NCBI RefSeq assembly: GCF_004104415.1
Contig: NZ_CP034669.1
From: Corallococcus coralloides
GTDB lineage: Bacteria; Myxococcota; Myxococcia; Myxococcales; Myxococcaceae
DNA length: 64,000 nucleotides
Direction: 5' to 3' (one strand)
In this document: piece by piece, positions 704 through 25,246 of the stretch
Layout: every line of letters starts with the position of its first letter
Position numbering within the stretch: the stretch's first letter is position 1
Notes under the pieces: generated by a model
The model's input: the letters and a program-made list of their open reading frames with translations, nothing else
What the model was told of the DNA's origin: nothing
Database searches by the model: none
Position numbers and translations under genes: made by a program

Positions 704-2350
704 TTGCCCAACGTGAGCCTCTGGAACAGCAAGCGAGGGACCGCGTCCTCGGGCGCCGGAGCGGTCCACCAGCTCGTACCGCGGCTGGCCTGGGGCGACG
801 CCGTGGGCAACCAGGTGCGCTACCTGCGCGACCTCCTGCGCGGCTGGGGGTACGCGTCGGAGATCTACGCGGAGCAGTGGGACGAGGCGTGCCGGGACGA
901 CGTGCGCCCCGCGCTCGAGTACGCGCGCGACGCGGGCCGGGACACGGCGCTGCTCGTCCACCACAGCTTCGAGTCGCGGCTGGTGCCGCTCGTCGCCAAG
1001 GCGAAGGGGCGCAAGGCGCTGCTGTACCACAACGTCACCCCCGCGCGGTTCTTCGAGGGGACGGACCGCCACGTCGCCCGCGGCTGCATGCTGGCGCGCG
1101 ACGAGCTGCTCCAACTGCGCGAGCACGTGACGCACGCCTGGGCGTACTCGCACTTCAGCGTGGAGGAGCTGTCCGCCGCGGGGTACCCGGACGCGAGCGT
1201 CCTGCCCTTCGCGGTGGACTGGAACGCCTTCGACGTGCCGCCGGACGCGGCCCTGCGCGAGCAGGTGGAGGATGGGTGCGCCAACGTGCTCTTCGTGGGC
1301 CGCACCGTGCCCAGCAAGCGGCTGGAGGACGTGCTGCGCGTCTTCACCGCCTACCAGCGCCTGTACCAGCCCAAGAGCCGGCTGCTGGTGGCGGGGACGC
1401 TCTACAGCAGCGCGCCCTACGACGCGTCCGTGCTGGCGCTGCGCGAGCAGCTGGGGCCGGACCGCGTGGTGTTCCTGGGGCGGGTGGACGCCGCCCAGCT
1501 GTCCGCGTGCTTCGCCTCCGCCACCGCGTACCTCTCCATGAGCCGCCACGAGGGCTTCGGCGTGCCGCTGCTGGAGGCCATGTACCGGGGCGTGCCGGTG
1601 GTGGCCTACGGCGCCGCGGCGGTGCCGGAGACCATGGGCGGCGCGGGCCTCACCACCCTGTCGGACGACCCCGCGCAGGTGGCGGGGCTGCTGGCGGTGC
1701 TGGAGCGCGACCCCGCCCTGCGCGCGAAGGTGGTGGAGGCGCAGCGCCAGCGACTGGCCTCCCTGAACCAGCAGTCCGTGGCCCAGCGCGTGCGCGAGGC
1801 GCTCATGCCCTTCCTCCAGGGGGACGCGCCCCCTCCCCGCCCGTCCGCCGCGTCCGCCGTCACCGTCGTGTGCCCGGGCTTCGACGCCGCGCCGGACGCG
1901 CCCATGTCCCGGTTGGCGCGCGCGGTGGTGGACCGGCTGCCGGACGCGAGCCTGTGGACGGTGCGCCGGCAGGTGCTGCCCCTGCAGCTGGCCCCGGGTG
2001 AAGAGCGCGAGGGGGTGACGCGGGTGCGGCGCTTCACGCCGGACGAGCCCACCTTCGGGTTGGACGGGGTCAGCCCGCCGTCGTCGTCCCTGGAGACGGG
2101 GGTGCGGTGCGCCTCCGGGCCGTTGCTGTTCGCGGGCGCGGGTGAAGAGGTGGCCCGGCGCACGGTGTCGCGGCTGCCGGCGGAGCTGCGCGTCGCGGGC
2201 GTCTGGGAGCCCCGCCGCGCGCCGGACGCGGGCGTCCGCCAGGTCCTGGGAAAGAGGCTGTGGGAGCTCGCCCCGGGGCGCGACCTGACGTCGCTGGCGG
2301 CGGAGCTGGCAAGGGAGCTGGACGTGGGAGGACACCCGCATGCGCGCTGA
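704..2350 (+). CDS. Glycosyltransferase family 4 (GT-B, group 1) with a C-terminal extension
   Basis: The 548-aa ORF contains the GT4 signature region SMSRHEGFGVPLLEAMYRGVPVVAYG (EX7E-like). It is divergent from rfbB and sits in a glycan cluster. Confidence 0.8.
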   Translation: MPNVSLWNSKRGTASSGAGAVHQLVPRLAWGDAVGNQVRYLRDLLRGWGYASEIYAEQWDEACRDDVRPALEYARDAGRDTALLVHHSFESRLVPLVAKAKGRKALLYHNVTPARFFEGTDRHVARGCMLARDELLQLREHVTHAWAYSHFSVEELSAAGYPDASVLPFAVDWNAFDVPPDAALREQVEDGCANVLFVGRTVPSKRLEDVLRVFTAYQRLYQPKSRLLVAGTLYSSAPYDASVLALREQLGPDRVVFLGRVDAAQLSACFASATAYLSMSRHEGFGVPLLEAMYRGVPVVAYGAAAVPETMGGAGLTTLSDDPAQVAGLLAVLERDPALRAKVVEAQRQRLASLNQQSVAQRVREALMPFLQGDAPPPRPSAASAVTVVCPGFDAAPDAPMSRLARAVVDRLPDASLWTVRRQVLPLQLAPGEEREGVTRVRRFTPDEPTFGLDGVSPPSSSLETGVRCASGPLLFAGAGEEVARRTVSRLPAELRVAGVWEPRRAPDAGVRQVLGKRLWELAPGRDLTSLAAELARELDVGGHPHAR

Positions 2351-2867
2351 GGACCTCATCACCGACGACCCCACCGTGGAGGCGGTGCTGGAGTCCCTGG
2401 AGCGGCTGCCCACGCCCGAGCCCGAGAAGGTGGAGGCGCTGCGCCGGCGCCTCGCCGCCACCCAGACACAGGCCCCCAGCGCCGCGTGGCCCCCGTTCCT
2501 GGAGGGCGCGCGGCTGAAGCGCGACGCGCGCTACGCGGATCCGCCCTCGTCCCACCGGCCCCTGGTGGGGCCCGCGCTGGTGATGGCCAAGCGCGCCTTC
2601 CGGCTGGCGTTCCAGCCCTTCATCAACGAGGCGCTCCGGCGGCAGGTGGAGTTCAACGAGGCCATCCTGGATGCGCTCGCGCTCATCCACGAGCACCAGC
2701 GCGTCCAGGCGCGCACGCAGTCCCTGTGGCGCCAGGAGGTGGAGCGCCAGTTGGAGCAGCTGACCTCGCGCGTGCCTCCGGCCCCGCCGGAGCCTTCACC
2801 AGAGCCCGCTGGGGAGCCCGCTCAGGAGCCGCCGCGCCGTGCGCCCTCGCGGCGCCGTGGCCGCTAG
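2340..2867 (+). CDS. Hypothetical protein. Its start overlaps the GT4 stop by 11 nt.
   Basis: The 175-aa ORF begins ATGCGCGCTGA, overlapping the upstream stop. It has a mixed, non-Arg-dominated composition and is co-directional with the flanking glycan genes. No recognisable domain was found. Confidence 0.4.
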   Translation: MRAEDLITDDPTVEAVLESLERLPTPEPEKVEALRRRLAATQTQAPSAAWPPFLEGARLKRDARYADPPSSHRPLVGPALVMAKRAFRLAFQPFINEALRRQVEFNEAILDALALIHEHQRVQARTQSLWRQEVERQLEQLTSRVPPAPPEPSPEPAGEPAQEPPRRAPSRRRGR

Positions 2868-3115
2868 CCCTCCTGTCGGACACGTGACGGGGGACGCGGG
2901 GAACGACAGCCTGGCGGACCGGGCCACGCCCTGAAGCGGCTCCCCCGGCCGCTCGTCTCCCTGGCCGGCCAGGGGCTGGGCGCGGTGGCCCGGGGCCCGA
3001 GCCTGGAGGATGCGGGTATCTTCAAATCGCGCGCGTGAGCGGGAACCGGGCGTAGCGGGTTGTTCCCGTGTGCCCTGAAACGATAGAAGGCCCGGAAGAC
3101 GCAGGAGAGGGCTGA

Positions 3116-3814
3116 ATGGACACCCGACAGGGCCTCATCGTGTTGCTGGCCTTCAACGAAGAGGAGTGCATCGGCTCGACGGTGGCGGAGCTGCGCGAAG
3201 CGCTGCCGGAGTTCGACGTGCTCGTCGTGGACGACGGCTCCCGCGACGCCACGGCGCAGCGCGCGCGGGAGGGCGGTGCGCGGGTGCTCAGCCATCCCTT
3301 CAACCTGGGCGTCGCCGCGGGCGAGGCCAGCGGCCTGCTGTTCGCGTCCCGCAACGGGTACGAGCACGTCATCCGCATGGACGGCGACGGCCAGCATGAT
3401 CCGGCGTCCGTGCCCGCGCTGCGCGAGGCGCTCCAGTCGGGCGTGGAGCTGGTCATCGGCAGCCGCTTCGCGGGCGTCACCAGCTTCCGCTCCACGTGGC
3501 TGCGCCGCTTCGGAAACCGGTTCCTCGCGGGGCTCCTGTCCTCGCTGAGCCGCCACCGCATCACCGACCCCACCTCCGGCTTCCGGGGCTTCGGCCCGCA
3601 GGCGATCCGCTTCTTCGCGCGCGTCCACCCGCACGACTACCCGGAGCCGGAGAGCGTGCTGATGGCGGCGCGCCAGGGCTTCGCCATCGCGGAGGTGCCG
3701 GTGCGCATGCGTCCGCGCCTCACCGGCACCAGCTCGCTGACGCCGTGGAAGTCGGCCTTCTACATGGCGAAGGTGTCCTTCGCCCTGCTCATGGAGCGGG
3801 TCCGTCCCGTCTGA
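3116..3814 (+). CDS. GT2 polyprenyl-phosphate sugar synthase (dolichol-phosphate mannosyltransferase / ArnC / GtrB-like)
   Basis: The 232-aa ORF contains LIVLLAFNEEECIG...VLVVDDGSRDAT...MDGDGQHDP...TSGFRGF, a GT-A fold with DXD and the typical DPM/GtrB length. A GGAGAG RBS lies upstream. Confidence 0.85.
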   Translation: MDTRQGLIVLLAFNEEECIGSTVAELREALPEFDVLVVDDGSRDATAQRAREGGARVLSHPFNLGVAAGEASGLLFASRNGYEHVIRMDGDGQHDPASVPALREALQSGVELVIGSRFAGVTSFRSTWLRRFGNRFLAGLLSSLSRHRITDPTSGFRGFGPQAIRFFARVHPHDYPEPESVLMAARQGFAIAEVPVRMRPRLTGTSSLTPWKSAFYMAKVSFALLMERVRPV

Positions 3815-3819
3815 TTCCC

Positions 3820-4230
3820 ATGTTTCGCTCCAGCCTCATTGGCGTGGCCTTCGCGGCCGCCTTCGCCTTCAGCGTCCTGTGGTCGGCCCGGGGCCGGCGC
3901 ACCAGCGAGCGGCACACCTTCGCGTGGCTGCTGGTGGCGTTGGCCATCGGGGGCCTGTCGCTGTGGCGCCACGGCATCGACGCGCTGGCGACGGCGATGG
4001 GCATCTACTACGCCCCGTCCGCCCTCTTCTTCATCGCCCTGTCGTGCCTCATGTGGCTGGTGTACCGGCTGAGCCTCCAGGTGGCCGACCAGCGCCAGCA
4101 GCTCAAGCGGCTGGCCCAGGAGGTCGCCCTGCTCTCCTCCGCGGAGGCCGAGCGCGCCGCGCGTGCGCAGCTCCGTCCTGAAGCCCTCTCCCCCGCCGTC
4201 GCAGCCCGGCGCGACTCGCACGCCGTCTGA
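3820..4230 (+). CDS. Small 4-TM membrane protein (DUF2304/GtrA-like) partnered with the GT2
   Basis: An ATG at 3820 follows the GT2 stop by 5 nt. The product MFRSSLIGVAFAAAFAFSVLW...LLVALAIGGLSLW...YYAPSALFFIALSCLMWLVY has hydrophobic helices and a charged C-terminal tail. Confidence 0.6.
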   Translation: MFRSSLIGVAFAAAFAFSVLWSARGRRTSERHTFAWLLVALAIGGLSLWRHGIDALATAMGIYYAPSALFFIALSCLMWLVYRLSLQVADQRQQLKRLAQEVALLSSAEAERAARAQLRPEALSPAVAARRDSHAV

Positions 4231-4256
4231 GGGCCCACCGGGCCCCCCCGTCCTCC

Positions 4257-5657
4257 ATGCTTCCGTCTTCCACCCCGTCCCCGTCCCCGCTGCGTCCGTT
4301 CTTCATCGCGCCCGTCGTGGCCTTCCTCGTCGTGGCCGCCGTGCTGGGCGCGGTGCTGAGCTTCCTCACGCCCCCGTTCCAGGTGGCGGACGAGCCGGCG
4401 CACTTCTACCGCGCGTATCAGATCTCCCAGGGGCAGCTGACGGCCACGCGGATTCCCGGAGGTGACGCGGGCGGGCAGCTCCCGCGCAGCATCGTGCGGG
4501 TGGCGCAGGACGTGTCCGCGGGCGTGGGCGGCAATCCCGGGGCGCGCCAGGACCGGCAGCGTCTGCGCGAGGCGATGCACGCGGCGCTGGCCCCCCAGGA
4601 CACCCAGGAGTGGGGCTTCGCCGCGTCCTCCATCTACTTCCCGCTGGTCTACTTCCCGCAGTCGCTGGGCATGGCGCCCGCGCGGATGATGGAGGCGCCC
4701 CCGGTGGTGGTGCTGTGGGCGGGCCGGCTGGCCAACATGCTGGTGGCGCTGGTGCTCACCGCGGTGGCGCTGCGCCTGATGCCCTTCCAGCGGTGGGCCT
4801 TCGCGCTGCTGGCGCTCACGCCCATGGTGCTCTTCCAGCGCGCGTCCGTGTCCGCGGACCCCATCACGATGTCGGCGTGCCTGCTGCTGGTGGCGCTGTC
4901 GCTGCACTTCACGTTCGCGCACCCGGGGCCGCTGGGCGCGAAGCAGCTGGGCCTGCTGCTGGCGAGCGCGGTGTTCGTGGCGCTGTGCAAGCAGGCCTAC
5001 CTGCCGCTGTCGCTGGTGTTCCTGCTGCTGCCGCTCGCCCGGCTGGGGACGCGCGTCCGCTACGCCCTGGCCCTGGCCGCCATCGTCGCCGTGCCCGCGC
5101 TGCTCCAGTTCGCGTGGTCCTCCACGGTGCGGGACATCTTCCGGCCCAGCGAGGTGGTGGCGCAGGTGGCCCACGTGCGCGCGCACCCCTTCCAGGTGCT
5201 GGGCGTGCTGGTGAGTGACTTCTGGAAGAGGCTGCCGGACTTCCTGCACCAGGGCGGCGGCGTGCTGGGCTGGCTGGACACGCCGGTGCCCCGCGCCGCC
5301 CTCTTCGCCCTGGCCGCGCTGCTCTTCGGGGTGATGGCGCTGGACGCCGACAAGGCCGCGCCGAAGGTGGGCTGGCGCGAGCGCGCGGTGGCGCTGGGGG
5401 TGGCGGTGGCGGGCGTGCTGGCCATCCAGGCCATGCTGTACCTGGCGTGGACGGCGCCGGGCGCGAACCACGTGGACGGGGTGCAGGGCCGCTACCTGCT
5501 GCCCTACGCGCCGCTGCTGGTGGTGGCGCTGGCCCCGCCCGCCTGGGTGCCGAGCGGGCTGACGCGCTTCAAGCCGGTGCTCATCGCCGGCTTCCTCCTG
5601 CTCACCGCGGCGGTGACGCTCACCACGGTGTACCAGCGCTACTACGGCCCGGCGTAG
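4257..5657 (+). CDS. Large polytopic membrane protein (DUF2142-like), putative GT-C-type periplasmic glycosyltransferase
   Basis: The 466-aa ORF has more than 10 predicted TM helices and loop motifs (e.g. FQVADEPAHFYRAYQ). It lies immediately downstream of the GT2 and small membrane protein, in the same orientation. Confidence 0.65.
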   Translation: MLPSSTPSPSPLRPFFIAPVVAFLVVAAVLGAVLSFLTPPFQVADEPAHFYRAYQISQGQLTATRIPGGDAGGQLPRSIVRVAQDVSAGVGGNPGARQDRQRLREAMHAALAPQDTQEWGFAASSIYFPLVYFPQSLGMAPARMMEAPPVVVLWAGRLANMLVALVLTAVALRLMPFQRWAFALLALTPMVLFQRASVSADPITMSACLLLVALSLHFTFAHPGPLGAKQLGLLLASAVFVALCKQAYLPLSLVFLLLPLARLGTRVRYALALAAIVAVPALLQFAWSSTVRDIFRPSEVVAQVAHVRAHPFQVLGVLVSDFWKRLPDFLHQGGGVLGWLDTPVPRAALFALAALLFGVMALDADKAAPKVGWRERAVALGVAVAGVLAIQAMLYLAWTAPGANHVDGVQGRYLLPYAPLLVVALAPPAWVPSGLTRFKPVLIAGFLLLTAAVTLTTVYQRYYGPA

Positions 5658-5699: not shown

Positions 5700-8600
5700 T
5701 CAGCGGTGGGTGGCCGCGGCGCTGGCGGTCGCGAGGGGCGTGCTTCGCGCGGCGGGCGGCGTCACCAGGCCGGCCAGGAGCCCGTGGAGCTCTCGGGCCT
5801 GGGTCACGTAGTCGCGCACGGCGGCGCGGTGGGGGTTCTGGTACCGCTCCAGACGCTCCGGGTGGGCCATCAGGTCGCGCAGCACGCGGCGGTAGCCTTC
5901 AGCGTCGCCAATGGCCAGGACGTTGCCGTTGACGCCATCCACGATGTCCTCGCTGACGCCACCCGACGCAGTGGTGACGACCCACACGTTCCGGGCCAGG
6001 GCCTCGCGCACCGCCAACCCGAAGCTCTCCTTCCACTGCGAGGGCATCAGCAGCACGTCCACGCCGTCGAAGAAGGCGTCCAGGCCGTCCTGATCATACG
6101 GAGGCACCACCTCCACCTGCCCCTTCACCTTCCATTCCTTCGCGTCGATGGCGGCGGGCCCCAGGCGCAGCTGGATGTCGGTCATCTTCAGGACCCAGTG
6201 GGACTCCGGCACCGACTCCAGGATGTCCTTGAGCCAGAAGTACCCCTTGTGCACCGCGCGGCCGCCCAGGTAGGCGAAGCGCACCGGGGCGTTCGCGGGG
6301 CGCGGGGCGCGCTCGCGGCCGGGCATCAGCACGCCGTTCTTGTTCACGGCGATGCGCTCCGGCGCGATGCCGTTGGCGATGTAGAGCTGGCGCTGGAACT
6401 CGCTGGGCGTCATCAGCAGGGCCGCGCCGTCCAGCACCTTGCGCAGGGCGAACGTGCGCTTGAAGGTGTAGCGCGAGTCCGGCATGCACTTGGAGCACAC
6501 GCGCAGGTCGATGGCCTTCTGGTCGCAGTACGAGTTGTCCTCGCGGACCATGAACTGCCGCTCGCACAGCCACCACGCGTCATGGAGGGTGATGGTGTAC
6601 GGGATGCCCTCCGCGGCGCACGCCGTGGCGAGCGTGGCGCTCAAGAGCTGGATGGAGTGGAAGTGCACCACGTCCGGGCGCACCGTCTTGAGCACCTGGG
6701 TGAAGGTCTCCCCCATGCGCGGGTTCTGGTACTCCTGGGCGCGGTCCGTGAGGGACGGCACCTTGGTGGCGATGACGGGCAGGCCCATCGCCTCGTAGCG
6801 CACCACCGAGTAGTCGGGCAGCGTCGAGCCGACGATGCCGGTGAACACGGTGACGTCGCAGCCCTCCGCCTTCAGCCGGTCCGACACCTGCTCCGCGACG
6901 ATGGTGGCCCCGCCGAAGCTCAGGGGCGCGAAGAGGACGTTGACCGCCAGCACCTTGAGGCGCGGCGGCGGCGCGGGCGGCAGGTGCTGGAGGATGGGCT
7001 GGAGCCGCTCCGTGGCCACCACCGCGGGGTGGTAGCGCGCCATCACGCTGCGGTGGGCCTCCTCGCCCATGCGCTTGCGCAGCGACGCGTCCTGCACCAG
7101 CGCGGACAGCGCGGACTCCCACTCCTCACGGGTGGTGGCGAGGAAGCCGTTGCGGCCATGCTCGAGGATCTCCCGGAACGGCCCGGTGCTGGAGCACACC
7201 GCGGGCACGCGGAAGACGGACGCCTCGATGAACTTGATGTTGCTCTTGGCTTCGTTGAAGACCGTCGGCTCCAGCGGCGCGATGGAGATCTGCCAGGACG
7301 CGAGCGCGCGCAGGTAGTCCTCCGCGTCCAGGAAGGGGATGCGGAAGATGCGGTCGGAGAAGCGCTTGAAGCCCTCCGGCAGCTCCAGGTAGCCGTGGAT
7401 GGCCAGGCGCACGTTCGCATGGCGCTCCATCACCGCGAGGATGGCGTCGGCGGCGATGGTGAAGTCGGCGTCGTGCGTGCGCGTTCCGCTGCCGTAGCCG
7501 ATGGTGACCCAGTCCGGATCCACCGCGGGCGGGCGCGCCTCCATCTCCTTCGCCACCTCCAGGATGACGTCGTCCAGGCAGTTCTCGACGATGTAGACCT
7601 TGCCGGAGTTGGCCTTGGCCATCTCCCTCGCGAGGGTGGGCGTGCTGGCGATGGCGTTCGCGCTCAGGCTGAGCGCCCTGCGGTATTGCCGCACGCCGTT
7701 GACGAGCAGCTCGCGCTCGGCGGCGGGCAGCCGCAGCACGTTGGAGTTCCGCTCGTACTCCTCCACGTCGAAGATGAGGTCGTCGACGTCGAAGAAGTGC
7801 GGGAGGCCCAGGCGCCGGGTCTCCGCCAGCAGCTCCTCCACGGCCGGGTAGGCGGGCACGCGGTAGTAGATGACCAGGCCGTGGAACTGGAGCGCGGCCT
7901 TGCACTCCGCGTGGTCGTGCCAGTTCACGACGGTGACGTCGTACCCGAGCCGGTGGAACATGGCGACCTTCTGATCCACGCGGTAGCGCTTGCACTGGGG
8001 CAGCGACAGCTCCGCGATGATCAGGATGCGCTGTCCCATGCTGGCCTGGGAGACCGGGGTCAGCGGCACGGTCCACGGAGACGGGGGCGCGGGCGGCGCG
8101 CTCGGGGCCGGGGCCACGAGCGCCGAGGAGGGGGCGACGGGGGTGGCCGGCGTGAGGGCGGCCTTGGCGGCGCGCAGCGCCTGGAGCGCGCGCTGCTTCG
8201 CGGGCAGCCGGATCAGCTTCGCGCCCACCTTGTGCAGCGTGCCCTTGCTCTGCTGGTAGAAGTGGCCGCGCTTCGTGCCGGGGGGCAGCACGCGCTCGCG
8301 CATGGCCCAGTAGCGGTTGATGGCCTTCCAGGCGAGGCTGCCGTTGATGTGCGCCAGCTCCGAGCCCTGGCGCGACACGTGCGCGTCCAGTTCGTGGATG
8401 CGGGCGTTCTTGCGGCCCAGCTCGTCCTGGAGCATCCGCTGGGCCAGGCCCAGCCGCGCGAGCCGGCCTTCGGTCTCGCGCAGGGTGCTCGCGGTGTCGC
8501 GCGCCGCTTCACGGGCGGCGTCCAGCTCCGCCTGGAGCTGCTGCGCCTGGCGCGCGTGCTCCGCGGCCTGCTGTTCCTTCTGTCCGTAGGCGTCGCGCAG

Positions 8601-9389
8601 GTGCTGCTGGTGCAGCAGGAGCGACAGGCGCCCGCCCAGCGTGGCGAAGGCCTGCCGCAGGTGTTCGCGCTCCGCGTCGCGGGTGCTCGTCAGGGCCACC
8701 ATCCCTTCCGGCTGCTCCGGGCCCACGGCGAGCACGCCCAGACCGAAGCCGTGCTCGAACTCGAAGGAGGGAAACTGGCCCTGGATCTCCTCCCACAGCC
8801 GCCAGACGCCGAAGTTGCGCTCGCGCACCTGGGTGTCGTGGAAGAGGATGACGCCGCGCGCGCTCATCTTGGGGCGCCAGCGCTCGAAGTCCGCCTTCAC
8901 CTGCTCGTATTCGTGGCAGCCATCGATGTGGAGCAGGTCGACGGAGCCGTCCGCGAACTGGCCCAGGGCCTCGTCGAAGGTCATCGGGTGCAGCTGGGAG
9001 AACCGGCTGTAGCGCGGGTCATGGTGCGCGCGCAGGTCCGCGAGCACCTCCGGCCCGTAGAAGCCCGCTTGCGGGTCACCCTTCCAGGTGTCCACCGCGT
9101 GGCAGCGCGTCTCCAGCTTCAGCGCGTCCACCGCCTGACAGAACGCGGAGTAGGACACGCCGGTGTGCGTGCCCAGCTCCACCAGCGTCGCGGGACGCAG
9201 CAGGTCCACCAGGAACATCGCGAACGGGACGTGCTCCACCCAGGCGGAGGAGGCCAGCAGCCTCAGGGGCTGCGTGAGGCAGAGGGGATGTTCCAGGGGA
9301 TTGAGCTGTGAATGCATGTTCGTGACGTCCGGAAGGCAGACCCTCGCGGCAGGCAAGGCACGCCCCCCTCCTTGGCGGATGTCCTCCAT
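5700..9389 (-). CDS. Multidomain protein: N-terminal class I SAM-dependent methyltransferase (Methyltransf_24/CmcI-like), a coiled-coil region, then tandem GT-B (GT4-like) glycosyltransferase domains. It is WbdD/WbdA-like.
   Basis: The 1229-aa ORF has N-terminal [15 protein letters not shown]...[37 protein letters not shown] and a Gln/Ala/Arg-rich heptad-like segment at about aa 250-340. The C-terminus has ...[29 protein letters not shown] (the GT4 E-x7-E region). A strong GGAGGGGG RBS lies 5 nt upstream of the ATG at 9389. Confidence 0.8.
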
Positions 9390-9466: not shown

Positions 9467-11713
9467 CTACGGTGTCTGGACGAAGTCGAGGCGCGGATGG
9501 CCCGAGGCATCGGTCCGCCCCGCGCGGACCCACGCTTCACGCAGCCGCGTGGCGTCGTGGGAAACCGCGAGTGCTCCCTCCCGAGAGCGGGTGCGCACGA
9601 GTCGCGCGTGGGGTGCGTAGAGGACGCGCAGCCCGGCTTCGCTCGCGCGCAGGCACAGCTCCACGCCCCGCGCCTCGTCGGACGTGAAGGCCGCGTCCCA
9701 ACCCCCGAGCGACTCCAGGACCTCGCGGCGGATCATCGCGCAGGCGCTGGAGACGGCGCGCACGTCGCGAGGCCAATGCGAGCCCCCGAACGCGCCGAGC
9801 GTGGGATCGAACAGCCCCGCGAAGGGGCGCAGCACCCGGCCCTCGGCGTCGAAGCGCAGCCCGGCCTCCAGCACCTGCCCCGAGGGAGAGACGATGCGCG
9901 CGCCCACCACGCCGACGCCGGGGCGTAAGGCCTGCGACGCGAGCTCCCTCAGCCACCCCGGTCCGGCCGGGAGCGTGCCTGCCTCCAGGACGAGGATGAG
10001 GTCGCCCCGGGCCTCGCGCAGCAGCTGGTTCGCCACGGCGCCCGGGGTCGCGGCCGCGTCCACCTGGACGTGGATGGCGCTGCCGGTGGAAGAGGCGCCT
10101 GGAGACGAAACAGGGACGCGGACCTCCACGTCCAGGTCGTCCGTGAAGGCGAGGAGCGCCGCGAGCTCTGCCCCGGTGGGCGCTTCCGGCAGCAGCACGG
10201 AGACCCGCGGGCGGCCCACCAGCGGGTGGCGGATCCGGTACAGCCCTGGCGCGACGGTCTCCGCCGAGCCCCCCTCCCCCATGCGCGCCAGGTGCTCCGC
10301 CACGGCCCTGCGGCCCGCTTCGGAGGCCGCGGGCTTCGCGCTGGCGTCCGTGGCCGTGGAGCCGGGCAGCGTCCGCCAGTGGTAGAGCACGCGGGGGATG
10401 TGCTCGAAGCGCCGCGTGCGCTCCATCAGGCGCAGGAGCAGGTCGTGGTCCTGCGCGCCCTCGAAGCCCGGGCGGATGCCGCCCACCTCACGCAGCAGCG
10501 AGGCACGCACCACGAGGAAGTGGCACACGTAGTTCACCGCGCGCAGCAGCTCCGGGGACAGCGCGGGCTTCAGGTAGGGCGCGAAGCGCAGCCCCCGCGC
10601 GTCCACCTTGTCCTCGTCCGAGTAGACGACGTCCGCGTCCGGCGCTTCATCCAGCCGCAGCGCGACCTCGGCCAACGCGTGCGGCGCCAGCAGGTCGTCG
10701 TGGTCGAGGAAGCCCACGTACTCCCCGGTGGCCAGGGCCAGCGCGGCGTTGGTCGCGCGCGCGATGCCCTGGTTCGACTCCAGCCGCGCGAAGCGGATCC
10801 GCGCGTCTCCGGCCGCGGCCTCTCGCAGCGCGTCCGCGACTGACGCCGAGCGCGACCCGTCGTCCACGATGCACAGCTCCCAGTGCGGGTAGACCTGTGC
10901 GCGCACGGACGCGATGCATGCGCGGAGGACGTCCACCGGCGTCTCCCAGGCGGGAGTGATCAGGCTGATCCGCGGCTGACGCTCCAGCCGGGCCAGCGCG
11001 GCGGTCGCGTCGCGGACCTCGCGGGCCTCCCGCGCCAGGGCTTCGCGCGTGTACGTCTCCGGAGCGGGAAAGAGCACGGCGGGACGGGCCGCGCCCAGCA
11101 TGTGCCGCAGCAGGTGGACGGTCGCGTGATTGAAGGCGACCTGCCGCCGCCACAGCTCGCGCCAAAGGGGCAGACCCACCGCGCCGGCCTCTTGCGACAG
11201 CACGTCGCAGCGGGCCTCCAGCGCGTCCAGCGCCTCGGCGGCGCCCTCGGTGCGAAGGGGCCACCCGGCGCCGGAGAGCAGGGCCACGACCGCGAGGTTC
11301 CAGGCCCGCTGCGCCTCCAGCCCCGGCACGGAGGGAAGCCAGCGCCCCACCGCGCCCACGGGCCGAGGATCCGCGAGGCGTGAGAGTTCCTCGCGGGCCA
11401 ACTCCGGCAGCGTCCGCTCCGGCTGCCGGATCAACGCCCGCAGACGCAGGTCGAAGCGCAGCTGGCGCTCCAGCACCCACCACTGCAAGGGCGAAAGCCC
11501 CCGCGTCCCCCAGCGCTTGGCGGCGGTGATGACCGGGCCCCAGCGCGCACGGTGCGACCGCGGCACGTCGAAGCCCAGCACCTCGGCGAAGGCATCGTGC
11601 GGCGCGGTCCGCGCGGAGGAAGACGGCTCCCGGTCGGCCGGGCTCAACGTCAGGTCCTCGACGCCTGGCGTCTCTTGAGGACCACGAGGGCCGTCACTGT
11701 CGGCGGCGCCCAT
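9467..11713 (-). CDS. Two-domain family 2 glycosyltransferase
   Basis: The 748-aa ORF has a first GT-A domain ISLITPAWETPVDVLRACIASVRAQVYPHWELCIVDDGS...FLDHDDLLAPHAL...DED (DXD). A second GT2-like region follows (RVSVLLPE...). Confidence 0.8.
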   Translation of the reverse strand: MGAADSDGPRGPQETPGVEDLTLSPADREPSSSARTAPHDAFAEVLGFDVPRSHRARWGPVITAAKRWGTRGLSPLQWWVLERQLRFDLRLRALIRQPERTLPELAREELSRLADPRPVGAVGRWLPSVPGLEAQRAWNLAVVALLSGAGWPLRTEGAAEALDALEARCDVLSQEAGAVGLPLWRELWRRQVAFNHATVHLLRHMLGAARPAVLFPAPETYTREALAREAREVRDATAALARLERQPRISLITPAWETPVDVLRACIASVRAQVYPHWELCIVDDGSRSASVADALREAAAGDARIRFARLESNQGIARATNAALALATGEYVGFLDHDDLLAPHALAEVALRLDEAPDADVVYSDEDKVDARGLRFAPYLKPALSPELLRAVNYVCHFLVVRASLLREVGGIRPGFEGAQDHDLLLRLMERTRRFEHIPRVLYHWRTLPGSTATDASAKPAASEAGRRAVAEHLARMGEGGSAETVAPGLYRIRHPLVGRPRVSVLLPEAPTGAELAALLAFTDDLDVEVRVPVSSPGASSTGSAIHVQVDAAATPGAVANQLLREARGDLILVLEAGTLPAGPGWLRELASQALRPGVGVVGARIVSPSGQVLEAGLRFDAEGRVLRPFAGLFDPTLGAFGGSHWPRDVRAVSSACAMIRREVLESLGGWDAAFTSDEARGVELCLRASEAGLRVLYAPHARLVRTRSREGALAVSHDATRLREAWVRAGRTDASGHPRLDFVQTP

Positions 11714-11717
11714 CGTC

Positions 11718-13088
11718 TCAGCTTCCGCCGCCGGATTTGATCCGGTTCGCCAGGGCCTTGAGCGTGCCGTGGACCCAGGGGATGCCGTGCACGCGGGCGT
11801 TCAGTGCGTCCACCACCCGGTGGCGGAACTCCCGGGCCTGGAGCGTCTCGTCGCGGATCCGCGCCACGGCGTCCACCCAGGCCTCCAGGGGGCGCACCAG
11901 CCAGGTCCCCGGAGCCACGGCGACGGCCGGCGACTCGCGCGGCCCGCGCACCTCGCACGAGGCGATGCCGGCCACGAACACCGGCGGAAACAGCGCCCCC
12001 AGCCTCGCGGGCAGCTCCCCGAGTCCCGCTTCCATCACCACCGGGAAGGGCCCGATGCGATGACGGTCGATGACCATCGCGTGGACGAGCTCCGGATGGA
12101 CCACCAGGTGCTCCACCTCCAGCCGGTCGCCCAGCGGGAACGGCACCTTCGCGCGCACATAGGGCGGGGTCCCCTCACCGGACGCCCACTCGGTGCGGAA
12201 CGCCCGCGCCAACGCCCAGGCCTCGCGGCCCGTCTGGAGCGCGCGCACCAACTCCACGTAGTGACGCGGGTACACCACGCACCGCGCATCCACGAACGCC
12301 AGGTACTGTCCCCGGGCCTCGCGCACGGCCTCCGCGTACAGGGCTCCCGCGGGCGCTCGCACGGTGCGCGCCCGGAACGACCCCAGCCTGCCGTAGCGCT
12401 CCAGCGCCGCCTCCGCGGCGGACAGGTCCACGCCCTCGGGCGCCGCGAGCAGCAGCTCCAGCGGCTGCTGCTCCTGACACGCCAGCGCGAAGAGGGCCTC
12501 GTCGAGCGCCGCGTCCCGCGTCCCCGGCTCCACCGTGACGACGACGCTGAGCAACCCCGCCACCAGTGCGCGCGCGGGCCCGTCCGGTACCGCGACGTAG
12601 AGCCCCTCCTCCACCTGCGTGGACGGCGACAGCTGGGCCAGCACCGCCCGCAGCGCCTGCGCGGTGTCCTCCGCCAGCGCGGTGCTGCCAGACGCGCACG
12701 GCACCACCTCACGGTGCGCCACGCGGTAGCCCGCCTCGGCCAGCCGCCGCAGCATCCGCTGCTCGGAGAGCCCCGCGCGCACCGGCGCCTCCCCCGTCAG
12801 CGCGCCCATCAGCGCCCGCGCCGAGCCCGCGTTGCGCAGGCCGAACACCAGCTCCGCCCCCGGCGCCTCGCGCCGCAGCGCCTCCAGCCCGTCCTCCAGC
12901 ACCCGCTCGACCGCTTCGCCCTCCAGCACCACCAGCGTCGGCGCGGGTCCCTTGCCCCGCTTCCACTCCGGCCCTGGCAGCTCCCGCACGGAGCAACCCC
13001 GGGCCCGCAGGGCCTCCGCCAGCGAGGGCGACGCGCCCACCAGGCTCACCACCGCGCCCGCGCGCGCACGCGACAGCACCCGCGCCAT
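11718..13088 (-). CDS. Hypothetical protein with degenerate methyltransferase-like and GT-A-like regions. The 5' part of the track ORF is a spurious extension.
   Basis: The track ORF (602 aa) begins with about 145 aa of Arg/Gly/Pro-rich junk. A plausible start is the ATG at 13088 (MARVLSRARAGAVVSLVGASPSL...), giving a gap to the upstream gene's stop. The later segment LAFVDARCVVYPRHYVELVRAL resembles a GT2 DXD region. Confidence 0.45.
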   Translation of the reverse strand: MARVLSRARAGAVVSLVGASPSLAEALRARGCSVRELPGPEWKRGKGPAPTLVVLEGEAVERVLEDGLEALRREAPGAELVFGLRNAGSARALMGALTGEAPVRAGLSEQRMLRRLAEAGYRVAHREVVPCASGSTALAEDTAQALRAVLAQLSPSTQVEEGLYVAVPDGPARALVAGLLSVVVTVEPGTRDAALDEALFALACQEQQPLELLLAAPEGVDLSAAEAALERYGRLGSFRARTVRAPAGALYAEAVREARGQYLAFVDARCVVYPRHYVELVRALQTGREAWALARAFRTEWASGEGTPPYVRAKVPFPLGDRLEVEHLVVHPELVHAMVIDRHRIGPFPVVMEAGLGELPARLGALFPPVFVAGIASCEVRGPRESPAVAVAPGTWLVRPLEAWVDAVARIRDETLQAREFRHRVVDALNARVHGIPWVHGTLKALANRIKSGGGS

Positions 13089-13135
13089 CCACCGCTCGGA
13101 CGCGGCGGACGGGGGCGCCTCTTCGGATAGAGCGT

Positions 13136-14041
13136 TCACCAGCGCCTCCGAGCGAACTCCAGGTGGTGGCTGAAGTCCGCGATGCCCGCGAGCTTCCGCC
13201 CGGGCTTGAGGATGTCGGGCGTCTGGAACGGCTCGCCGCCCAGCTGCGCGTACTCCCGCAGGCGGGCCTTCATGAAGGCCGCGTCCCCGTACTTCGCCCC
13301 GAGCAGGGCCGCGCTGCGGCGGACCATCCGCTCGCGCACCGGGCTCTCCTCCCGGGTGACGGTGTAGTGGTGCACCAGCGCGGCGGGCGCCACCCGGATG
13401 GACAGCCCGGACGCCCTCGCTCGCCACGACAGGTCCACGTCCTCGCAGTACATGAAGAAGCGCTCGTCGAAGCCACCCACCCGCGCGTGCAGCTTCTTCG
13501 TCACCAGCAGCACGCAGCCGCTGCACCAGGGCGTCTCACCCGTCGACGGATGGTACGGCTTGGGGTGCTCGTCCGGGAACAGCCGGGCCTCCACCAGCCC
13601 CGTGTCCGCGCGCTGATCCGCCTCCCGCGCCAGCTCCCGCACGCAGTCCGGATGCAGCAGCCCGTCCGGGTTCACGCAGACGTAGTACCGCGCCCCGCCC
13701 GAGCCGAAGGCCTCCGCCATCATCCGGTTGTGCGCGGCCCCGAAGCCCAGGTTCCTCCCGGCGTGCCGGTAGTCCGCGTCCGCGTCCAGCCGCGCCACCC
13801 GCGCGCGCAGCGTGTCGTCCGGCGAGTTGTCCAGCCAGGCGACCCGGAACGCGGGCGCACCCGGAGCCTCGCGGTTCCACCGGAGCGACTCCCACAGCCG
13901 CTCCAGCTCCCGCTCCGGGTTCCGGTAAAGCACGATGCCCAGCCAGATGCCCGGCCCCCCCCCGTTCGCCGAAGCAGGGCCGCTCACGATCCGACGTCTC
14001 GCACTGGCGCCACGCGAGCCGCGGCGCCCTCCACGATCCAC
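13136..14041 (-). CDS. Family 2 glycosyltransferase (rhamnosyl/galactosyl transferase-like)
   Basis: The 301-aa ORF contains GIVLYRNPEREL...WLDNSPDD...NLGFGAAHNRMM...YCEDVDLSWRA, typical GT-A motifs. It uses a GTG start and overlaps the wzt 3' end by about 58 nt, so the true start may be downstream. Confidence 0.75.
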   Translation of the reverse strand: MDRGGRRGSRGASARRRIVSGPASANGGGPGIWLGIVLYRNPERELERLWESLRWNREAPGAPAFRVAWLDNSPDDTLRARVARLDADADYRHAGRNLGFGAAHNRMMAEAFGSGGARYYVCVNPDGLLHPDCVRELAREADQRADTGLVEARLFPDEHPKPYHPSTGETPWCSGCVLLVTKKLHARVGGFDERFFMYCEDVDLSWRARASGLSIRVAPAALVHHYTVTREESPVRERMVRRSAALLGAKYGDAAFMKARLREYAQLGGEPFQTPDILKPGRKLAGIADFSHHLEFARRRW

Positions 14042-15294
14042 CGGTGCGCAGGCCGCGTCACGCCTCCGTCCTGCACGCTGGAGCGCACCTCGAAGGTGCA
14101 GGCCTCCTCACGCTTCTCCCGCACCAGCCCCGCACGGTCGCGCACCACCACCGTGAACGCGTAGCGCCCCGCGGTGAGGCCCAGCCGGTCCACCACGAAG
14201 CGCACCGTCCCGCTGCCAGCCGCCGCCGCGCAGAAGGGCACGTCCTCCGCGAACGTGTCCGTGGCGTGCATCAGCACCCCGTCCGCCCGGGTGAGCTCCA
14301 GCCCCAGGCCCAGCTCCGGCGCGGGCGTGCGCGCGGTGTACGCCACGCTCAGCTCCAGGCCGTCCTCGGTGTCCACGCACTCCACCGCCCCGCCGTCCCG
14401 GCCCCGCAGCCGCACCGCGTCCACGGTGAGCGCAGACGCTTCGCCCTGGGGCGACGCCAGCGACGGCAGCGCGCCGCCGTCCGACGCCAGCGCGGGCGAC
14501 TCCATGGCCATGCCGCGCTCCTCCGCCAGCGCCACCGCGCGGCGGTAGCTGCGGATGACGTCCGCGGGCGGACCGAACTCGCGGATGCGCCCGGCGTCGA
14601 TCCACGCGCCCAGGTCGCACCAGCGCTCCAGCGTCCCCAGGTCGTGGGTGACGATGACGATGGTCTTCCCGGCCCGCTTGAACTCCGTCATCTTCGCCAG
14701 GCTCTTCTTGCCGAAGTGCTCGTCACCGACGGCGAGGATTTCGTCGATGATGAGGATGTCCGGGTCCACGTGCGTGGCCACGGAGAACGCCAGGCGCATG
14801 TACATGCCGCTGGAGTAGGTGCGCACCGGCTCGTCGATGAAGTCGCCCAGCTCGCTGAAGGCGATGATCTCCTCCATGCGCGCCTTCACCTCCGCGCGCG
14901 ACATCCCCAGGATGATGCCGTTGATGAGGATGTTCTCCCGGCCGGAGAAGTCCGGGTGGAAGCCCGCGCCCAGGTCCAACAGCGCGCTGATGCGCCCGTT
15001 GATGTCGATGGTGCCCGTGGTGGGCGTGTAGATGCCGGTGATGAGCTTGAGCAGCGTGCTCTTGCCGGAGCCGTTGCGCCCGATGATGCCCACCGTCTTG
15101 CCGCGGGGCACCACCAGGTCAATGCCCCGGAGCGCTTCGATCATGGACTTGCCGTCCGTGTCGCGCTGGCCACGCAGGAGGCGGATGAGCTCCGACTTGA
15201 TGGTGGTGTACTCGCGCCGGATGGTGCTCTTCCGGAAGCGCTTCACCACGTTGCGGAGCACGATGGCGTCCGGAGACGCAATGGCGCTGGTCAT
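13984..15294 (-). CDS. wzt: Polysaccharide ABC exporter ATP-binding protein with a C-terminal carbohydrate-binding domain
   Basis: It was trimmed to the ATG at 15294 (MTSAIASPDAIVLRNVVKRF...). Walker A GRNGSGKST, signature YSSGMYMRLAF and Walker B ILIIDEILAVGDE are present. A roughly 180-aa C-terminal extension beyond the NBD (...GLELSVAYTARTP...) is typical of O-antigen-binding Wzt. The ATG overlaps the wzm stop (ATGA). Confidence 0.85.
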   Translation of the reverse strand: MTSAIASPDAIVLRNVVKRFRKSTIRREYTTIKSELIRLLRGQRDTDGKSMIEALRGIDLVVPRGKTVGIIGRNGSGKSTLLKLITGIYTPTTGTIDINGRISALLDLGAGFHPDFSGRENILINGIILGMSRAEVKARMEEIIAFSELGDFIDEPVRTYSSGMYMRLAFSVATHVDPDILIIDEILAVGDEHFGKKSLAKMTEFKRAGKTIVIVTHDLGTLERWCDLGAWIDAGRIREFGPPADVIRSYRRAVALAEERGMAMESPALASDGGALPSLASPQGEASALTVDAVRLRGRDGGAVECVDTEDGLELSVAYTARTPAPELGLGLELTRADGVLMHATDTFAEDVPFCAAAAGSGTVRFVVDRLGLTAGRYAFTVVVRDRAGLVREKREEACTFEVRSSVQDGGVTRPAHRWIVEGAAARVAPVRDVGS

Positions 15295-25185: not shown

Positions 25186-25246
25186 GGTGGCACCCCCGGT
25201 TGTTCCACCCCCGCGCCGCCGGAAACGACGGCGCGGCGGGCGGGCT

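Follow-up and report, generated by a model that had tools for sequence, protein, structure and literature searches.

The 1229-residue protein encoded on the minus strand at 5700..9389 of the window (the whole 64,000-nucleotide stretch of Corallococcus coralloides contig NZ_CP034669.1 analysed here) combines an O-methyltransferase, a heptad helix, a basic/Pro-rich linker, and two GT-B modules, in this order. This one-polypeptide design, claimed in a preliminary description of the DNA, is confirmed in the Corallococcus gene cluster by Pfam and AlphaFold2 (AF2) models, whose domains and folds agree with the claimed architecture. Our computations cover the folds and motifs of the domains, the helix with its heptads, the carbohydrate-binding domain (CBD) of Wzt, and the position of the gene in a locus with wzm/wzt and rml. 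Read against WbdD/WbdA, WbbB, ORF6 of Klebsiella pneumoniae O7, and WsaE, the analogues on which the functional proposals below are based, the protein is probably a cytoplasmic, membrane-peripheral enzyme that polymerises, measures, and caps an ABC-transporter-dependent, rhamnose-containing glycan. The gene and its parts are as follows.

5700..9389, minus strand: whole fusion gene (methyltransferase, coiled coil, and two GT modules); ORF list, GC3 of 0.958, and Pfam
8688..9317, minus strand: N-terminal class I cation-dependent-type O-methyltransferase, putative chain terminator (aa 25-234)
8340..8678, minus strand: coiled-coil spacer and candidate 'ruler', 113 residues in one helix (aa 238-350); AF2 and heptad register
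8289..8339, minus strand: post-coil motif S351-x-x-W354-K...R on a short helix; orthologue invariance and motif count
8031..8288, minus strand: basic stretch, then Pro/Ala-rich flexible linker (aa 368-453); pLDDT and a scan of charge and hydrophobic moment
6990..8030, minus strand: GT-B module 1 (aa 454-800); Glyco_trans_1_2 and AF2 fold
5760..6956, minus strand: GT-B/GT4 module 2 (aa 812-1210); Glyco_transf_4, Glycos_transf_1, AF2, and Foldseek

The ORF counted from its first ATG showed GC contents of 0.70, 0.45, and 0.96 at codon positions 1, 2, and 3, respectively, which is a coding signature for a genome of 72% GC. An overlapping plus-strand ORF (5706..9311, 1201 aa) was rejected as a shadow, its GC peak sitting in codon position 1. 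Most orthologues begin at the counterpart of M25 (nt 9317; a protein of 1205 aa), and GGAGGGGG, a Shine-Dalgarno-like sequence, lies 5 nt upstream of the ATG at 9389; therefore, both starts are possible. A protein of Corallococcus sp. AB045 is 98% identical to the fusion protein. No transmembrane segment was found in the fusion protein by a hydropathy scan.

Pfam Methyltransf_24 matched the N-terminal domain at aa 70-186 with 89.8 bits (cut-off, 26.3), and AF2 (pLDDT 84.8 for the model of methyltransferase and coil) placed a Rossmann domain at aa 25-234 ahead of a single unbroken helix, bearing out the Methyltransf_24-type assignment made earlier. Its motif I is rich in glycine and its strand 2 ends in an acidic residue, the pattern of cation-dependent class I O-methyltransferases. 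SAM motif I (V70-E-L-G-T-H-x-G-x-S79), the acidic D100, and the HIDG and FHD blocks were invariant in 47 diverse homologues, and all family-invariant residues of the domain are kept in the Corallococcus protein; the SAM-binding residues are thus present. D156 (HIDG) and D185 (FHD) are among these invariant residues, and the block aligns in sequence with 'IDGGH...HD' of MeT1; the two aspartates are candidate members of a metal-binding acidic triad.

In Foldseek, the domain matched sugar and catechol O-methyltransferases. The closest solved relative was MeT1, the methylmannose polysaccharide 1-O-methyltransferase of Mycobacterium hassiacum (E 1.7e-10), and Mg-dependent O-methyltransferases including SpnH and CalS11 were also close in fold; MeT1 was also the only PDB sequence-profile match of the domain, at 16-18% identity. 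MeT1 methylates an oligosaccharide end and thereby blocks it. However, it is a stand-alone enzyme of 220-231 aa with neither a coil nor a GT fusion, and its target is the 1-OH at the reducing end of a polysaccharide in the cytoplasm. SpnH is a PDB entry deposited as a rhamnosyl 4'-O-methyltransferase. By analogy with the capping systems named above, the N-terminal domain may terminate the chain, with methylation predicted at the terminal sugar and not within the chain.

The helix (residues 214-326 of the AF2 model, aa 238-350 of the protein) would be ca. 17 nm long if straight. Within the whole protein, only the coil region rose above the 99.9th percentile of the heptad score. A single heptad register ran through aa 257-347 (z = 5.7 against shuffles of local composition, with 0 of 5000 shuffles as high), while the score taken as a window maximum was marginal against such shuffles (p = 0.065). 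This register, together with the AF2 helix, agrees with the coiled coil placed at aa 250-340 in the preliminary description, and a composition of A19, L17, R15, Q13, and E11 among 111 residues shows that 'Q/A/R-rich' was a correct label.

Among homologues, the spacer between two conserved anchors varied about six-fold in length, from 61 to 362 residues (ca. 9 to 52 heptads). One mod-7 length class held 37 of 80 homologues (Bonferroni p = 5e-11), and when only distinct lengths were counted, 20 of 57 still fell into one class (p = 5e-4). No enrichment was observed for periods of 5, 6, 8, 9, or 11 in the same homologue set. Additionally, 16 of the 22 orthologues differed from the Corallococcus protein by an exact multiple of seven residues. 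Since length varies by whole heptads, it appears to be free while the register is constrained, and this combination matches the expectation for a spacer. By analogy, and with indirect support from this natural variation in whole heptads, the coil may serve as a ruler for chain length; it is likely to be oligomeric.

The motif at the foot of the coil has the family consensus S-T-S-W-R-x-T-x-P-L-R and was found in 66 of 120 homologues versus 8 of 120 shuffles; S351 and W354 were invariant in 23 orthologues. The basic stretch after the coil carries a net charge of +3 to +5 per 18 aa, and the linker has low pLDDT.

AF2 folded the GT tandem into two complete GT-B modules (pLDDT 89.5, pTM 0.86). Module 2 contains Glyco_transf_4 (aa 825-1020) and Glycos_transf_1 (aa 1083-1185), an invariant E1121-x7-E1129, and four invariant cysteines (C942, C955, C965, and C968), and matched MshA, ManT, BshA, and PimA in Foldseek (TM-score normalised to target, ca. 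0.75). With its two Rossmann domains, Pfam matches, and E-x7-E, it has the features of a retaining GT4 enzyme of the GT-B fold. Module 1 matched Glyco_trans_1_2 at aa 651-794 (34.4 bits; cut-off, 25) and showed a complete two-Rossmann fold; orthologues that are 38-86% identical share ca. 50 residues in it without change. It carries the non-canonical K715-S-N-I-K-x-x-E722 in the absence of the canonical E-x7-E, and its assignment to GT4 is less certain than that of module 2. In homologues whose second module differs, module 1 stays with the methyltransferase-coil unit.

The remaining genes considered here are the following.

5..583, minus strand: 5' part of rmlB (dTDP-glucose 4,6-dehydratase), truncated where the window ends; tblastn
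704-2350, plus strand: GT4; Pfam and NCBIfam
2340-2867, plus strand: 175-aa protein
3116-3814, plus strand: GT2 resembling polyprenyl-phosphate-sugar synthases; Pfam and NCBIfam
4257-5657, plus strand: DUF2142 multi-pass membrane protein; Pfam, NCBIfam, and hydropathy
9467..11713, minus strand: dual GT2 protein, 748 aa; two Glycos_transf_2 stretches
about 11718..13130, minus strand: GT2-like gene, 470 aa; Pfam
13136..14041, minus strand: GT2-like gene, 301 aa; Pfam
13984..15294, minus strand: Wzt, ABC-transporter ATPase with C-terminal CBD, 436 aa; ABC_tran and Wzt_C
nt 13987-14469, minus strand: CBD of Wzt (aa 276-436); Wzt_C and profile match to solved CBDs
15291..16271, minus strand: Wzm, ABC-2 permease; ABC2_membrane, NCBIfam galactan_ABC_perm, and hydrophobic segments

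The dual GT2 protein is a conserved partner of the fusion gene and was found in 23 loci; in those of Caballeronia and Burkholderia, a homologue (36-38% identical) directly adjoins the fusion gene. It probably acts as an additional polymerase component or as an adaptor. The two GT2-like genes are separated by a GC3 frame switch at ca. 13130 and are kept as separate neighbours in Corallococcus loci. The rmlB fragment shares 56% identity with residues 2-203 of Caballeronia RmlB and occupies the same position as rmlBDAC in two related loci (L011 and L005); in the closest relatives, rmlB-D-A-C continue past rmlB. Furthermore, in Myxococcaceae, Burkholderiaceae, Halomonadaceae, and Luteibacter, the fused orthologue has rmlBACD no more than 10 kb away. 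By analogy with the known systems, rhamnose is the presumed sugar. The plus-strand block at 704..5657 consists of divergent accessory genes that are syntenic in Corallococcus loci, and its pair of DUF2142 and GT2 genes is also present in Burkholderia loci.

The wzm and wzt genes lie 4.6 kb upstream of the fusion gene on the same strand. The nucleotide-binding domain (NBD) of Wzt matched that of Aquifex aeolicus Wzt (7K2T/8DKU; E ca. 1e-60). Wzt_C scored 45.9 bits (cut-off, 30.4), and a profile built from 12 Wzt C-termini aligned with the entire A. aeolicus CBD (6O14/8DKY; E 1e-9 to 4e-10) and gave a weak match to the E. coli O9a Wzt-C (2R5O; E 0.12). The Wzt_C score and the homology to the A. 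aeolicus CBD uphold the earlier claim of a C-terminal glycan-binding domain. In Corallococcus loci, the CBD is 69-88% identical versus 95-99% for the NBD, and thus evolves faster, in step with the methyltransferase and GT modules. Among the 20 fused loci in which Wzt was detectable, 9 (Burkholderiaceae and Luteibacter) encode a Wzt that lacks a CBD. Therefore, the cap is not always the export signal, and the link between the fusion protein and a Wzt binding domain is not obligatory. In Corallococcus, Wzt may well recognise the cap, as in the systems compared below.

In the proposed mechanism, the two C-terminal GT-B modules would extend the chain on an undecaprenyl-diphosphate-linked primer, joined probably by the dual GT2 neighbour and possibly by the other GT2 proteins. 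The SAM-dependent, metal-type O-methyltransferase would be held ca. 13–17 nm off by an oligomeric coiled coil and would be reached only by chains grown long enough. An O-methyl group on the non-reducing terminal sugar would then stop extension and give a modal chain length, and the CBD of Wzt would bind the capped end of the chain, which Wzm/Wzt would export. Judged from the analogues, this sequence of polymerising, measuring, capping, and exporting by recognition appears to be the best reading. The preliminary description had further proposed that length is set intramolecularly. This part was too strong: coiled coils oligomerise, WbdD forming a trimer (PMC5082667), so the head may cap the chains of a neighbouring protomer.

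The same description had set the fusion against WbdD and WbdA of E. coli O9a, as if these were the only paradigm, implying that a one-polypeptide fusion is novel. This does not hold, because WbbB, O7 ORF6, and WsaE are already characterised single polypeptides. WbbB of K. pneumoniae O12 and Raoultella terrigena likewise unites a terminator at the N-terminus, a ruler formed by a coiled coil, and two polymerising GTs at the C-terminus, and export there needs recognition of the terminal residue by the Wzt CBD (PMC11231755). Its terminator is a β-Kdo glycosyltransferase (GT99), whereas that of Corallococcus is a methyltransferase. WbbB was not among the PDB sequence matches of the fusion protein, which comprised only nine GT4-type chains. 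In K. pneumoniae O7, ORF6 (Kelly et al., J Biol Chem 2024) shows the same order, with a methyltransferase at the N-terminus, a coiled coil in the middle, and two GT modules at the C-terminus, and its L-rhamnose-containing, ABC-transporter-dependent polymer, made with an extra GT in trans, is a further likeness (PMC11231755). However, in O7 ORF6 a methyltransferase and a kinase act as a pair to add methyl-phosphate, and a CBM precedes the coil (PMC11231755); neither a kinase nor a CBM was found in the fusion protein by Pfam or in the AF2 model. The GT modules of O7 ORF6 are GT2, in contrast to the GT-B modules of Corallococcus. The features of the WbbB/O7 ORF6 type found here are thus the N-terminal methyltransferase, the coil, the C-terminal GT modules, and wzm/wzt with a Wzt CBD.

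WsaE of Geobacillus stearothermophilus NRS 2004/3a, acting on an S-layer poly-L-rhamnan, likewise has a chain-capping N-terminal methyltransferase (2-O-methyltransferase) and two rhamnosyltransferase domains (PMC2943079, PMC3898925) and is encoded with wzm/wzt and rml genes, a likeness of domain order and locus description. Wzt has already been proposed to bind the methylated chain end in that system (PMC2943079). WsaE serves Gram-positive protein glycosylation, whereas the Corallococcus product is probably an LPS O-antigen, and its literature (PMC2943079, PMC3898925) does not describe a coiled-coil ruler, which is present in the Corallococcus protein. In E. coli O9a and K. pneumoniae O3 and O5, WbdD adds a methyl or methyl-phosphate cap and has a trimeric coil of ca. 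20 nm, WbdA is a GT4-type multi-module polymerase, and a Wzt CBD recognises the cap (PMC11231755, PMC5082667); the terminator and polymerase, fused in Corallococcus, are separate there. The WbdD methyltransferase was absent from the sequence and fold matches (PDB search and Foldseek). Membership in the WbdD family was rejected: the WbdD-type methyltransferase and kinase pair with a C-terminal membrane-binding, WbdA-recruiting region was not found.

Other readings have to be weighed against polymerise-measure-cap. The methyltransferase might decorate internal repeat residues, with the coil as a scaffold for a multi-GT complex and length arising from polymerase or exporter kinetics. Methylation by WsaE is chain-length independent in vitro (PMC2943079). 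The Wzt that accompanies many fused orthologues is without a CBD, like systems that need no terminal signal, and the constant company of GT module 1 with the methyltransferase-coil unit would suit a scaffold. M. xanthus has its O-antigen methyltransferase, SgmR, as a protein of its own, and MacLean and colleagues reportedly placed O-antigen methylation on internal GalNAc residues in 2007; methylation of myxobacterial O-antigen therefore need not be terminal. However, internal decoration offers no obvious reason for a methyltransferase at the far end of a heptad-quantised spacer of 60 to 360 residues, and the Wzt encoded in the Corallococcus locus does have the CBD that is a hallmark of cap-dependent export. 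The terminator also sits at the coiled-coil protein's distal end in every characterised system (PMC11231755), and we regard internal decoration as unlikely, though deserving some weight. A degenerate, non-catalytic remnant in the methyltransferase or GT module 1, which would leave in effect a GT of single or dual function whose N-terminus is structural, is highly improbable. The methyltransferase motifs are degenerate in some orthologues (P0014-P0016 and P0018), and module 1 combines its missing E-x7-E with a modest Pfam score of 34 bits; against this, the Corallococcus protein retains every family-invariant methyltransferase residue, and module 1 has its conserved residues and confident GT-B fold.

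As for the product, the LPS O-antigen of Corallococcus is the most likely glycan. The wzm/wzt genes of M. xanthus are assigned to O-antigen export, with the priming enzyme and ligase encoded elsewhere; rml, wzm/wzt, and a Gtr-like side-chain system are typical of O-antigen loci; and the content is common to Burkholderiaceae loci with rfb-like genes (rml, wzm, and wzt). These points count against a locus that makes another ABC-exported glycan (capsule-like, spore or cell-surface, or protein-linked) by the same enzymology, which we consider distinctly unlikely. That reading is favoured by the S-layer glycoprotein glycan made by WsaE, the closest functional analogue (PMC2943079, PMC3898925), and by the window genes scanned with Pfam, among which neither a WaaL ligase nor an initiating phosphoglycosyltransferase was identified. 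Myxobacteria also make several surface polysaccharides.

Under polymerise-measure-cap, the Corallococcus protein would be a myxobacterial example of the established ruler-plus-cap control of length in ABC-transporter-dependent glycans, and that paradigm is unchanged by our findings. The O-antigen locus of Corallococcus gains a concrete, testable annotation, which matters because gliding and development in myxobacteria are influenced by the O-antigen.

The results of the comparison may prove of more use than the single gene. A search for the fusion architecture in other genomes, as suggested earlier, matched the methyltransferase-coil region to 3544 cluster representatives at E<=1e-30, and the methyltransferase-coil-GT design is, judged from these matches, present in thousands of bacteria. 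Natural ruler lengths quantised by heptads over a six-fold range form a ready series for relating coil length to chain length, and the CBD-less Wzt of Burkholderiaceae casts doubt on whether the cap always signals export. A bolder and rather doubtful proposal is that the MeT1-like methyltransferase, heptad-quantised coil, S-T-S-W-R motif, and GT-B module 1 define a distinct, very large measure-and-cap family, of which apparently no Gram-negative member has been characterised. Its ruler would be tuned by whole heptads (ca. 9 to 52) with the azimuth between head and base fixed, S-x-x-W-R and the basic segment would form an undescribed docking element or membrane anchor, and capping would be separable from export recognition, since, where Wzt is detectable beside a fused orthologue, it is CBD-less in about half of the cases. 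If true, heptad tuning, the foot-of-coil element, and capping apart from export recognition would be new relative to the Klebsiella and E. coli paradigms.

Two observations on orthologues weigh against polymerise-measure-cap: the methyltransferase motifs are degenerate in some of them, and the Variovorax copy is an orphan outside any glycan locus. In other bacteria, the methyltransferase-coil-GT unit is fused to WsaF-type rhamnosyltransferase domains. The GT-GT tandem also occurs unfused, with a separate Methyltransf_24 gene nearby in a WbdA/WbdD-like arrangement, so that one polymerase tandem is found both fused and unfused.

The G+C content of the window is ~72%, and every frame holds long ORFs. 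The fusion ORF (5700..9389, minus strand; 1229 aa) has GC values of 0.70/0.45/0.96 by codon position, and this pattern is kept in each 100-codon block. A 1201-aa ORF overlapping it on the plus strand has its GC peak at codon position 1 and was rejected as a shadow. The start is at 9389 or 9317, since the M25-equivalent residue is the first residue in most orthologues but a good ribosome-binding sequence (GGAGGGGG) lies 5 nt upstream of the first ATG. Pfam searches of the protein identified the following domains, from the methyltransferase (MT) to the glycosyltransferase (GT) modules.

Pfam domains of the fusion protein
aa 70-186, Methyltransf_24 (89.8 bits)
aa 651-794, Glyco_trans_1_2, the C-lobe of the first GT-B
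aa 825-1020 (Glyco_transf_4) and aa 1083-1185 (Glycos_transf_1), a full GT4

The nearest database match was a protein of Corallococcus sp. AB045 (98% identity), and full-length orthologues were found in Corallococcus, Pyxidicoccus, and Cystobacter (60-86% identity), Variovorax (50%), and Caballeronia, Paraburkholderia, and others (about 40%). The fusion protein showed no transmembrane segment. A search of PDB sequences with the whole protein gave only weak GT4 matches and none for the MT or coil. The preliminary description regarded this protein as a terminating MT, a coiled-coil 'ruler', and GTs in one polypeptide, and the Pfam domains together with the AlphaFold2 models indicate that this architecture is correct.

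An AlphaFold2 model of aa 25-450, built from 47 aligned sequences (pLDDT 84.8), contained a Rossmann domain at aa 25-234 (pLDDT about 95). Motif I (V70-E-L-G-T-H-T-G-V-S79), D100, H154-I-D156-G, and H184-D185 were invariant across 47 diverse homologues. Since motif I and the acidic residues are invariant, the SAM-binding residues are in place, and the SAM-binding N-terminal domain proposed earlier has all of its blocks (motif I, D100, HIDG, and HD). MT relatives were missed by the whole-protein search and were reached with fold searches and a domain profile. The sole PDB match of this profile was MeT1, via the block 'IDG-H...D-F...W...HD'. MeT1 methylates an oligosaccharide end, which blocks that end. 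An exhaustive search with aa 25-450 yielded 9781 cluster representatives at a threshold of E<=1e-3, or 3544 at the stricter E<=1e-30, and 68 of the best 149 were at least 850 aa long. Degenerate MT motifs were observed in proteins of Myxococcaceae MAGs (P0014-P0016) and Variovorax (P0018; L003/L004), which keep the coil and both GTs but show loss or deletion of ELGTHxG, HIDG, and FHD. The Variovorax gene is an orphan and does not lie in a polysaccharide locus.

Following the MT, aa 238-350 was modeled as a single unbroken helix of 113 residues, corresponding to about 17 nm if straight. With a home-made heptad score, only aa about 262-313 exceeded the 99.9th percentile of composition shuffles, and the window-maximum score was not significant against local-composition shuffles (p = 0.065). 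This score was replaced with a whole-segment single-register test and a mod-7 length analysis. One register over aa 257-347 gave z = 5.7, and none of 5000 same-residue shuffles scored as high. A coiled coil is thus predicted, as had been proposed, by the continuous helix and the single heptad register.

For the length analysis, the spacer was measured between two anchors, the motif HGxGLGV that ends the MT and the post-coil S-x-x-W-[RK]; it is 131 residues here. Among the 80 homologues having both anchors, 37 shared a single mod-7 class of spacer length (Bonferroni p = 5e-11), and 20 of 57 remained in that class when each distinct length was counted once (p = 5e-4). Periods of 5, 6, 8, 9, and 11 showed no enrichment in these 80 homologues. 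The favoured class runs 61, 68, 75 ... 131 ... 362 residues. In 16 of 22 orthologues, the offset from the fusion protein was -56, -7, 0, +7, +21, or +28, and two of the exceptions were stutter-like (n x 7 + 4). This comparative length evidence is independent of, and stronger than, heptad scoring, and it indicates that natural ruler length is quantised in heptads, the length being free and the head-base register conserved. A spacer or ruler would be expected to combine free length with conserved register in this way. Such heptad-quantised variation is a modest observation, but it is worth following.

A motif S-[TL]-[SGA]-W-[RK]-x-[TI]-x-P-[LVM]-R ('STSWRITAPLR') lies precisely where the coil ends on its C-terminal side (aa 351-367; 8289-8339, minus strand). 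It occurred in 66 of 120 homologues, P0020-P0063 included, versus 8 of 120 shuffles. AlphaFold2 placed a short helix at aa 352-367, followed by a segment of low confidence, strongly basic directly after the motif and then Pro/Ala-rich. A WbdD-like amphipathic membrane-binding helix in this linker was unsupported, because the hydrophobic moment was <=0.42 and the segment is merely basic. At the foot of the ruler, the motif may act as a docking element or a membrane-proximal one.

A second AlphaFold2 model (aa 441-1229; pLDDT 89.5, pTM 0.86) contained two complete two-Rossmann GT-B modules at aa about 454-800 and about 812-1210. GT module 1, a Glyco_trans_1_2-type GT-B, has the invariant residues D536-D537, G633-S-G635, H639, K715-S-N-I-K719, and E722. 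GT module 2 has the character of a typical GT4, E1121-x7-E1129 being invariant, and its structural neighbours are MshA, ManT (MMP mannosyltransferase), BshA, and PimA. Among homologues sharing the MT, coil, and module 1, the second module differs: it is GT4 in the fusion protein and WsaF-type or GT2 in others. Additionally, C942, C955, C965, and C968 (aa 942-968; 6564-6644, minus strand) are invariant in module 2, forming the pattern HDAWWxCxRQF...YCxQ...CxxC in a lower-confidence loop of the N-terminal Rossmann lobe. These four cysteines are a candidate structural zinc site, which is unusual among GT4 enzymes.

The fusion gene is accompanied by genes for an ABC transporter (wzm and wzt), further GTs, and rmlB.

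Genes near the fusion gene
15291-16271, same strand as the fusion gene, wzm, most upstream in the series
13984-15294, same strand, wzt, after wzm
13136-14041, same strand, GT2 of 301 aa, after wzt
11718-13130, same strand, GT2-like protein of 470 aa
9467-11713, same strand, dual GT2 of 748 aa, directly upstream of the fusion gene in gene order
between the fusion gene and rmlB, plus strand, a GT4, a 175-aa protein, a polyprenyl-phosphate-sugar-synthase-like GT2, and a DUF2142 multi-pass membrane protein
583..5, minus strand, 5' part of rmlB (first 200 or so RmlB residues) at the left edge of the window

A GC3 frame switch occurs at about 13130 between the two overlapping long ORFs of 11718-14041 (minus strand). 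These are not one frameshifted GT2, since both parts are separate adjacent genes in related Corallococcus loci. In an 86%-identical C. coralloides locus, rmlB-D-A-C lie in that order at the same relative position. Beyond wzm, there are unrelated housekeeping genes. The interval separating the convergent stops (5657 and 5700) contained no intrinsic-terminator-like site. In 2340-5657 (plus strand), the 175-aa protein has no Pfam match or hydrophobic segment, and the PpgS/AglJ-like polyprenyl-phosphate sugar synthase (GT2, 232 aa) and the DUF2142 protein (466 aa) look like a lipid-linked-donor synthase and a GT-C-type transferase for Gtr-type periplasmic side-chain glycosylation. This DUF2142 and GT2 pair was seen again in Burkholderia loci with a fusion-gene orthologue.

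The nucleotide-binding domain (NBD) of Wzt matches A. aeolicus Wzt (E about 1e-60), and Pfam Wzt_C scored above the cut-off in the C-terminal 160 residues. A single-sequence search of PDB with this C-terminus gave no significant match. A profile of 12 Wzt C-termini matched the whole of the solved A. aeolicus carbohydrate-binding domain (CBD; E 4e-10 to 1e-9) and gave a weak match to E. coli O9a Wzt-C. The Wzt_C match and the homology with the A. aeolicus CBD bear out the glycan-binding C-terminal domain suggested for Wzt, and the match to the solved CBD means that a carbohydrate-binding fold is indicated.

To compare loci, one genome per species was scanned, which yielded 362 relatives, and the best 80 loci were examined. 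In these loci, fusion of the GT-GT tandem to the MT-coil was seen in Myxococcaceae, Burkholderiaceae, Halomonadaceae, Luteibacter, and some Alphaproteobacteria. A stand-alone tandem of ~780 aa was found in Nitrosomonas and Azonexus (L020-L023, L033) and many Acetobacteraceae (L036, L040-L063). The Acetobacteraceae have a separate Methyltransf_24 gene ~2.9 kb from the tandem on the opposite strand. No such gene was found near the tandem in the Nitrosomonas/Azonexus loci, yet their Wzt has a C-terminal extension of ~170 residues, implying a different chain terminator. Since the tandem occurs both fused and unfused, the same parts are used in 'WbbB-like' and 'WbdA/WbdD-like' arrangements. Most fused loci have rmlBACD within 10 kb. 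In Caballeronia and Burkholderia, the dual-GT2 partner (36-38% identity) is also conserved beside the fusion gene.

In the 20 fused loci where Wzt was detectable, a C-terminal extension of 174-199 residues was present in 11 (Myxococcaceae, including the window, and Halomonadaceae) and absent (0-6 residues) in nine (Burkholderiaceae and Luteibacter). Wzt of ~250 aa without CBD was seen beside a fused orthologue in L001/L002 (Caballeronia insecticola), L016, L024, L032, L037, L055, and L064. Because Wzt has no CBD in these Burkholderiaceae and Luteibacter loci, a terminal cap may exist there without cap-dependent export recognition. This frequent pairing is a modest observation worth following. 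Among Corallococcus loci, the CBD diverges faster than the NBD (69-88% vs 95-99%), and the MT and GT modules diverge in parallel with it.

The chains of E. coli O9a are polymerised by WbdA and capped by a separate protein, WbdD, a methyltransferase-kinase with a trimeric coiled coil of ~20 nm, and chain length shifts when the length of this coil is altered (PMC11231755, PMC5082667). K. pneumoniae O12 WbbB carries a terminator, a coil, and two polymerising GTs on one polypeptide (PMC11231755). The authors of PMC11231755 describe the strategy as widespread. G. stearothermophilus WsaE is trifunctional, with an N-terminal 2-O-methyltransferase and alpha-1,2- and alpha-1,3-rhamnosyltransferases, and its methyl cap has been proposed to stop chain growth and to be bound by Wzt (PMC2943079, PMC3898925). 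WsaE is nearest in predicted chemistry (methyl cap, rhamnose locus), and Klebsiella O7 ORF6 and WbbB are nearest in layout. The architecture is already known rather than new, and the fusion protein joins the WsaE/O7 ORF6/WbbB kind. In contrast to the characterised Gram-negative examples, its MT is MeT1/CCoAOMT-like without a kinase, its GT modules are GT-B and not GT2, and a conserved S-x-x-W-R stands at the foot of the coil. By analogy with these systems, from which we infer each functional step past the domain identities, the best-supported mechanism is the one proposed in the preliminary description, in which the coil would set chain length and Wzt would recognise the methyl cap. In M. xanthus, the O-antigen locus comprises wzm-wzt-wbgA-sgmR-wbgB, and the methyltransferase is a separate protein. 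Literature on the O-antigen structure of M. xanthus and the O-antigen of Caballeronia insecticola yielded nothing directly usable.

Elsewhere in the window, a 586-aa ORF at 32244-34004 (plus strand) has a good coding signal without a Pfam match, and two large FHA-domain proteins of 582 and 973 aa lie side by side at 39900-44597 (minus strand). A bactofilin gene (25247-25954, minus strand) adjoins a gene for a ParB_N-domain protein (23851-25185, minus strand), and this pair at 23851-25954 is reminiscent of the Myxococcus bactofilin/ParB-like chromosome-organisation module.
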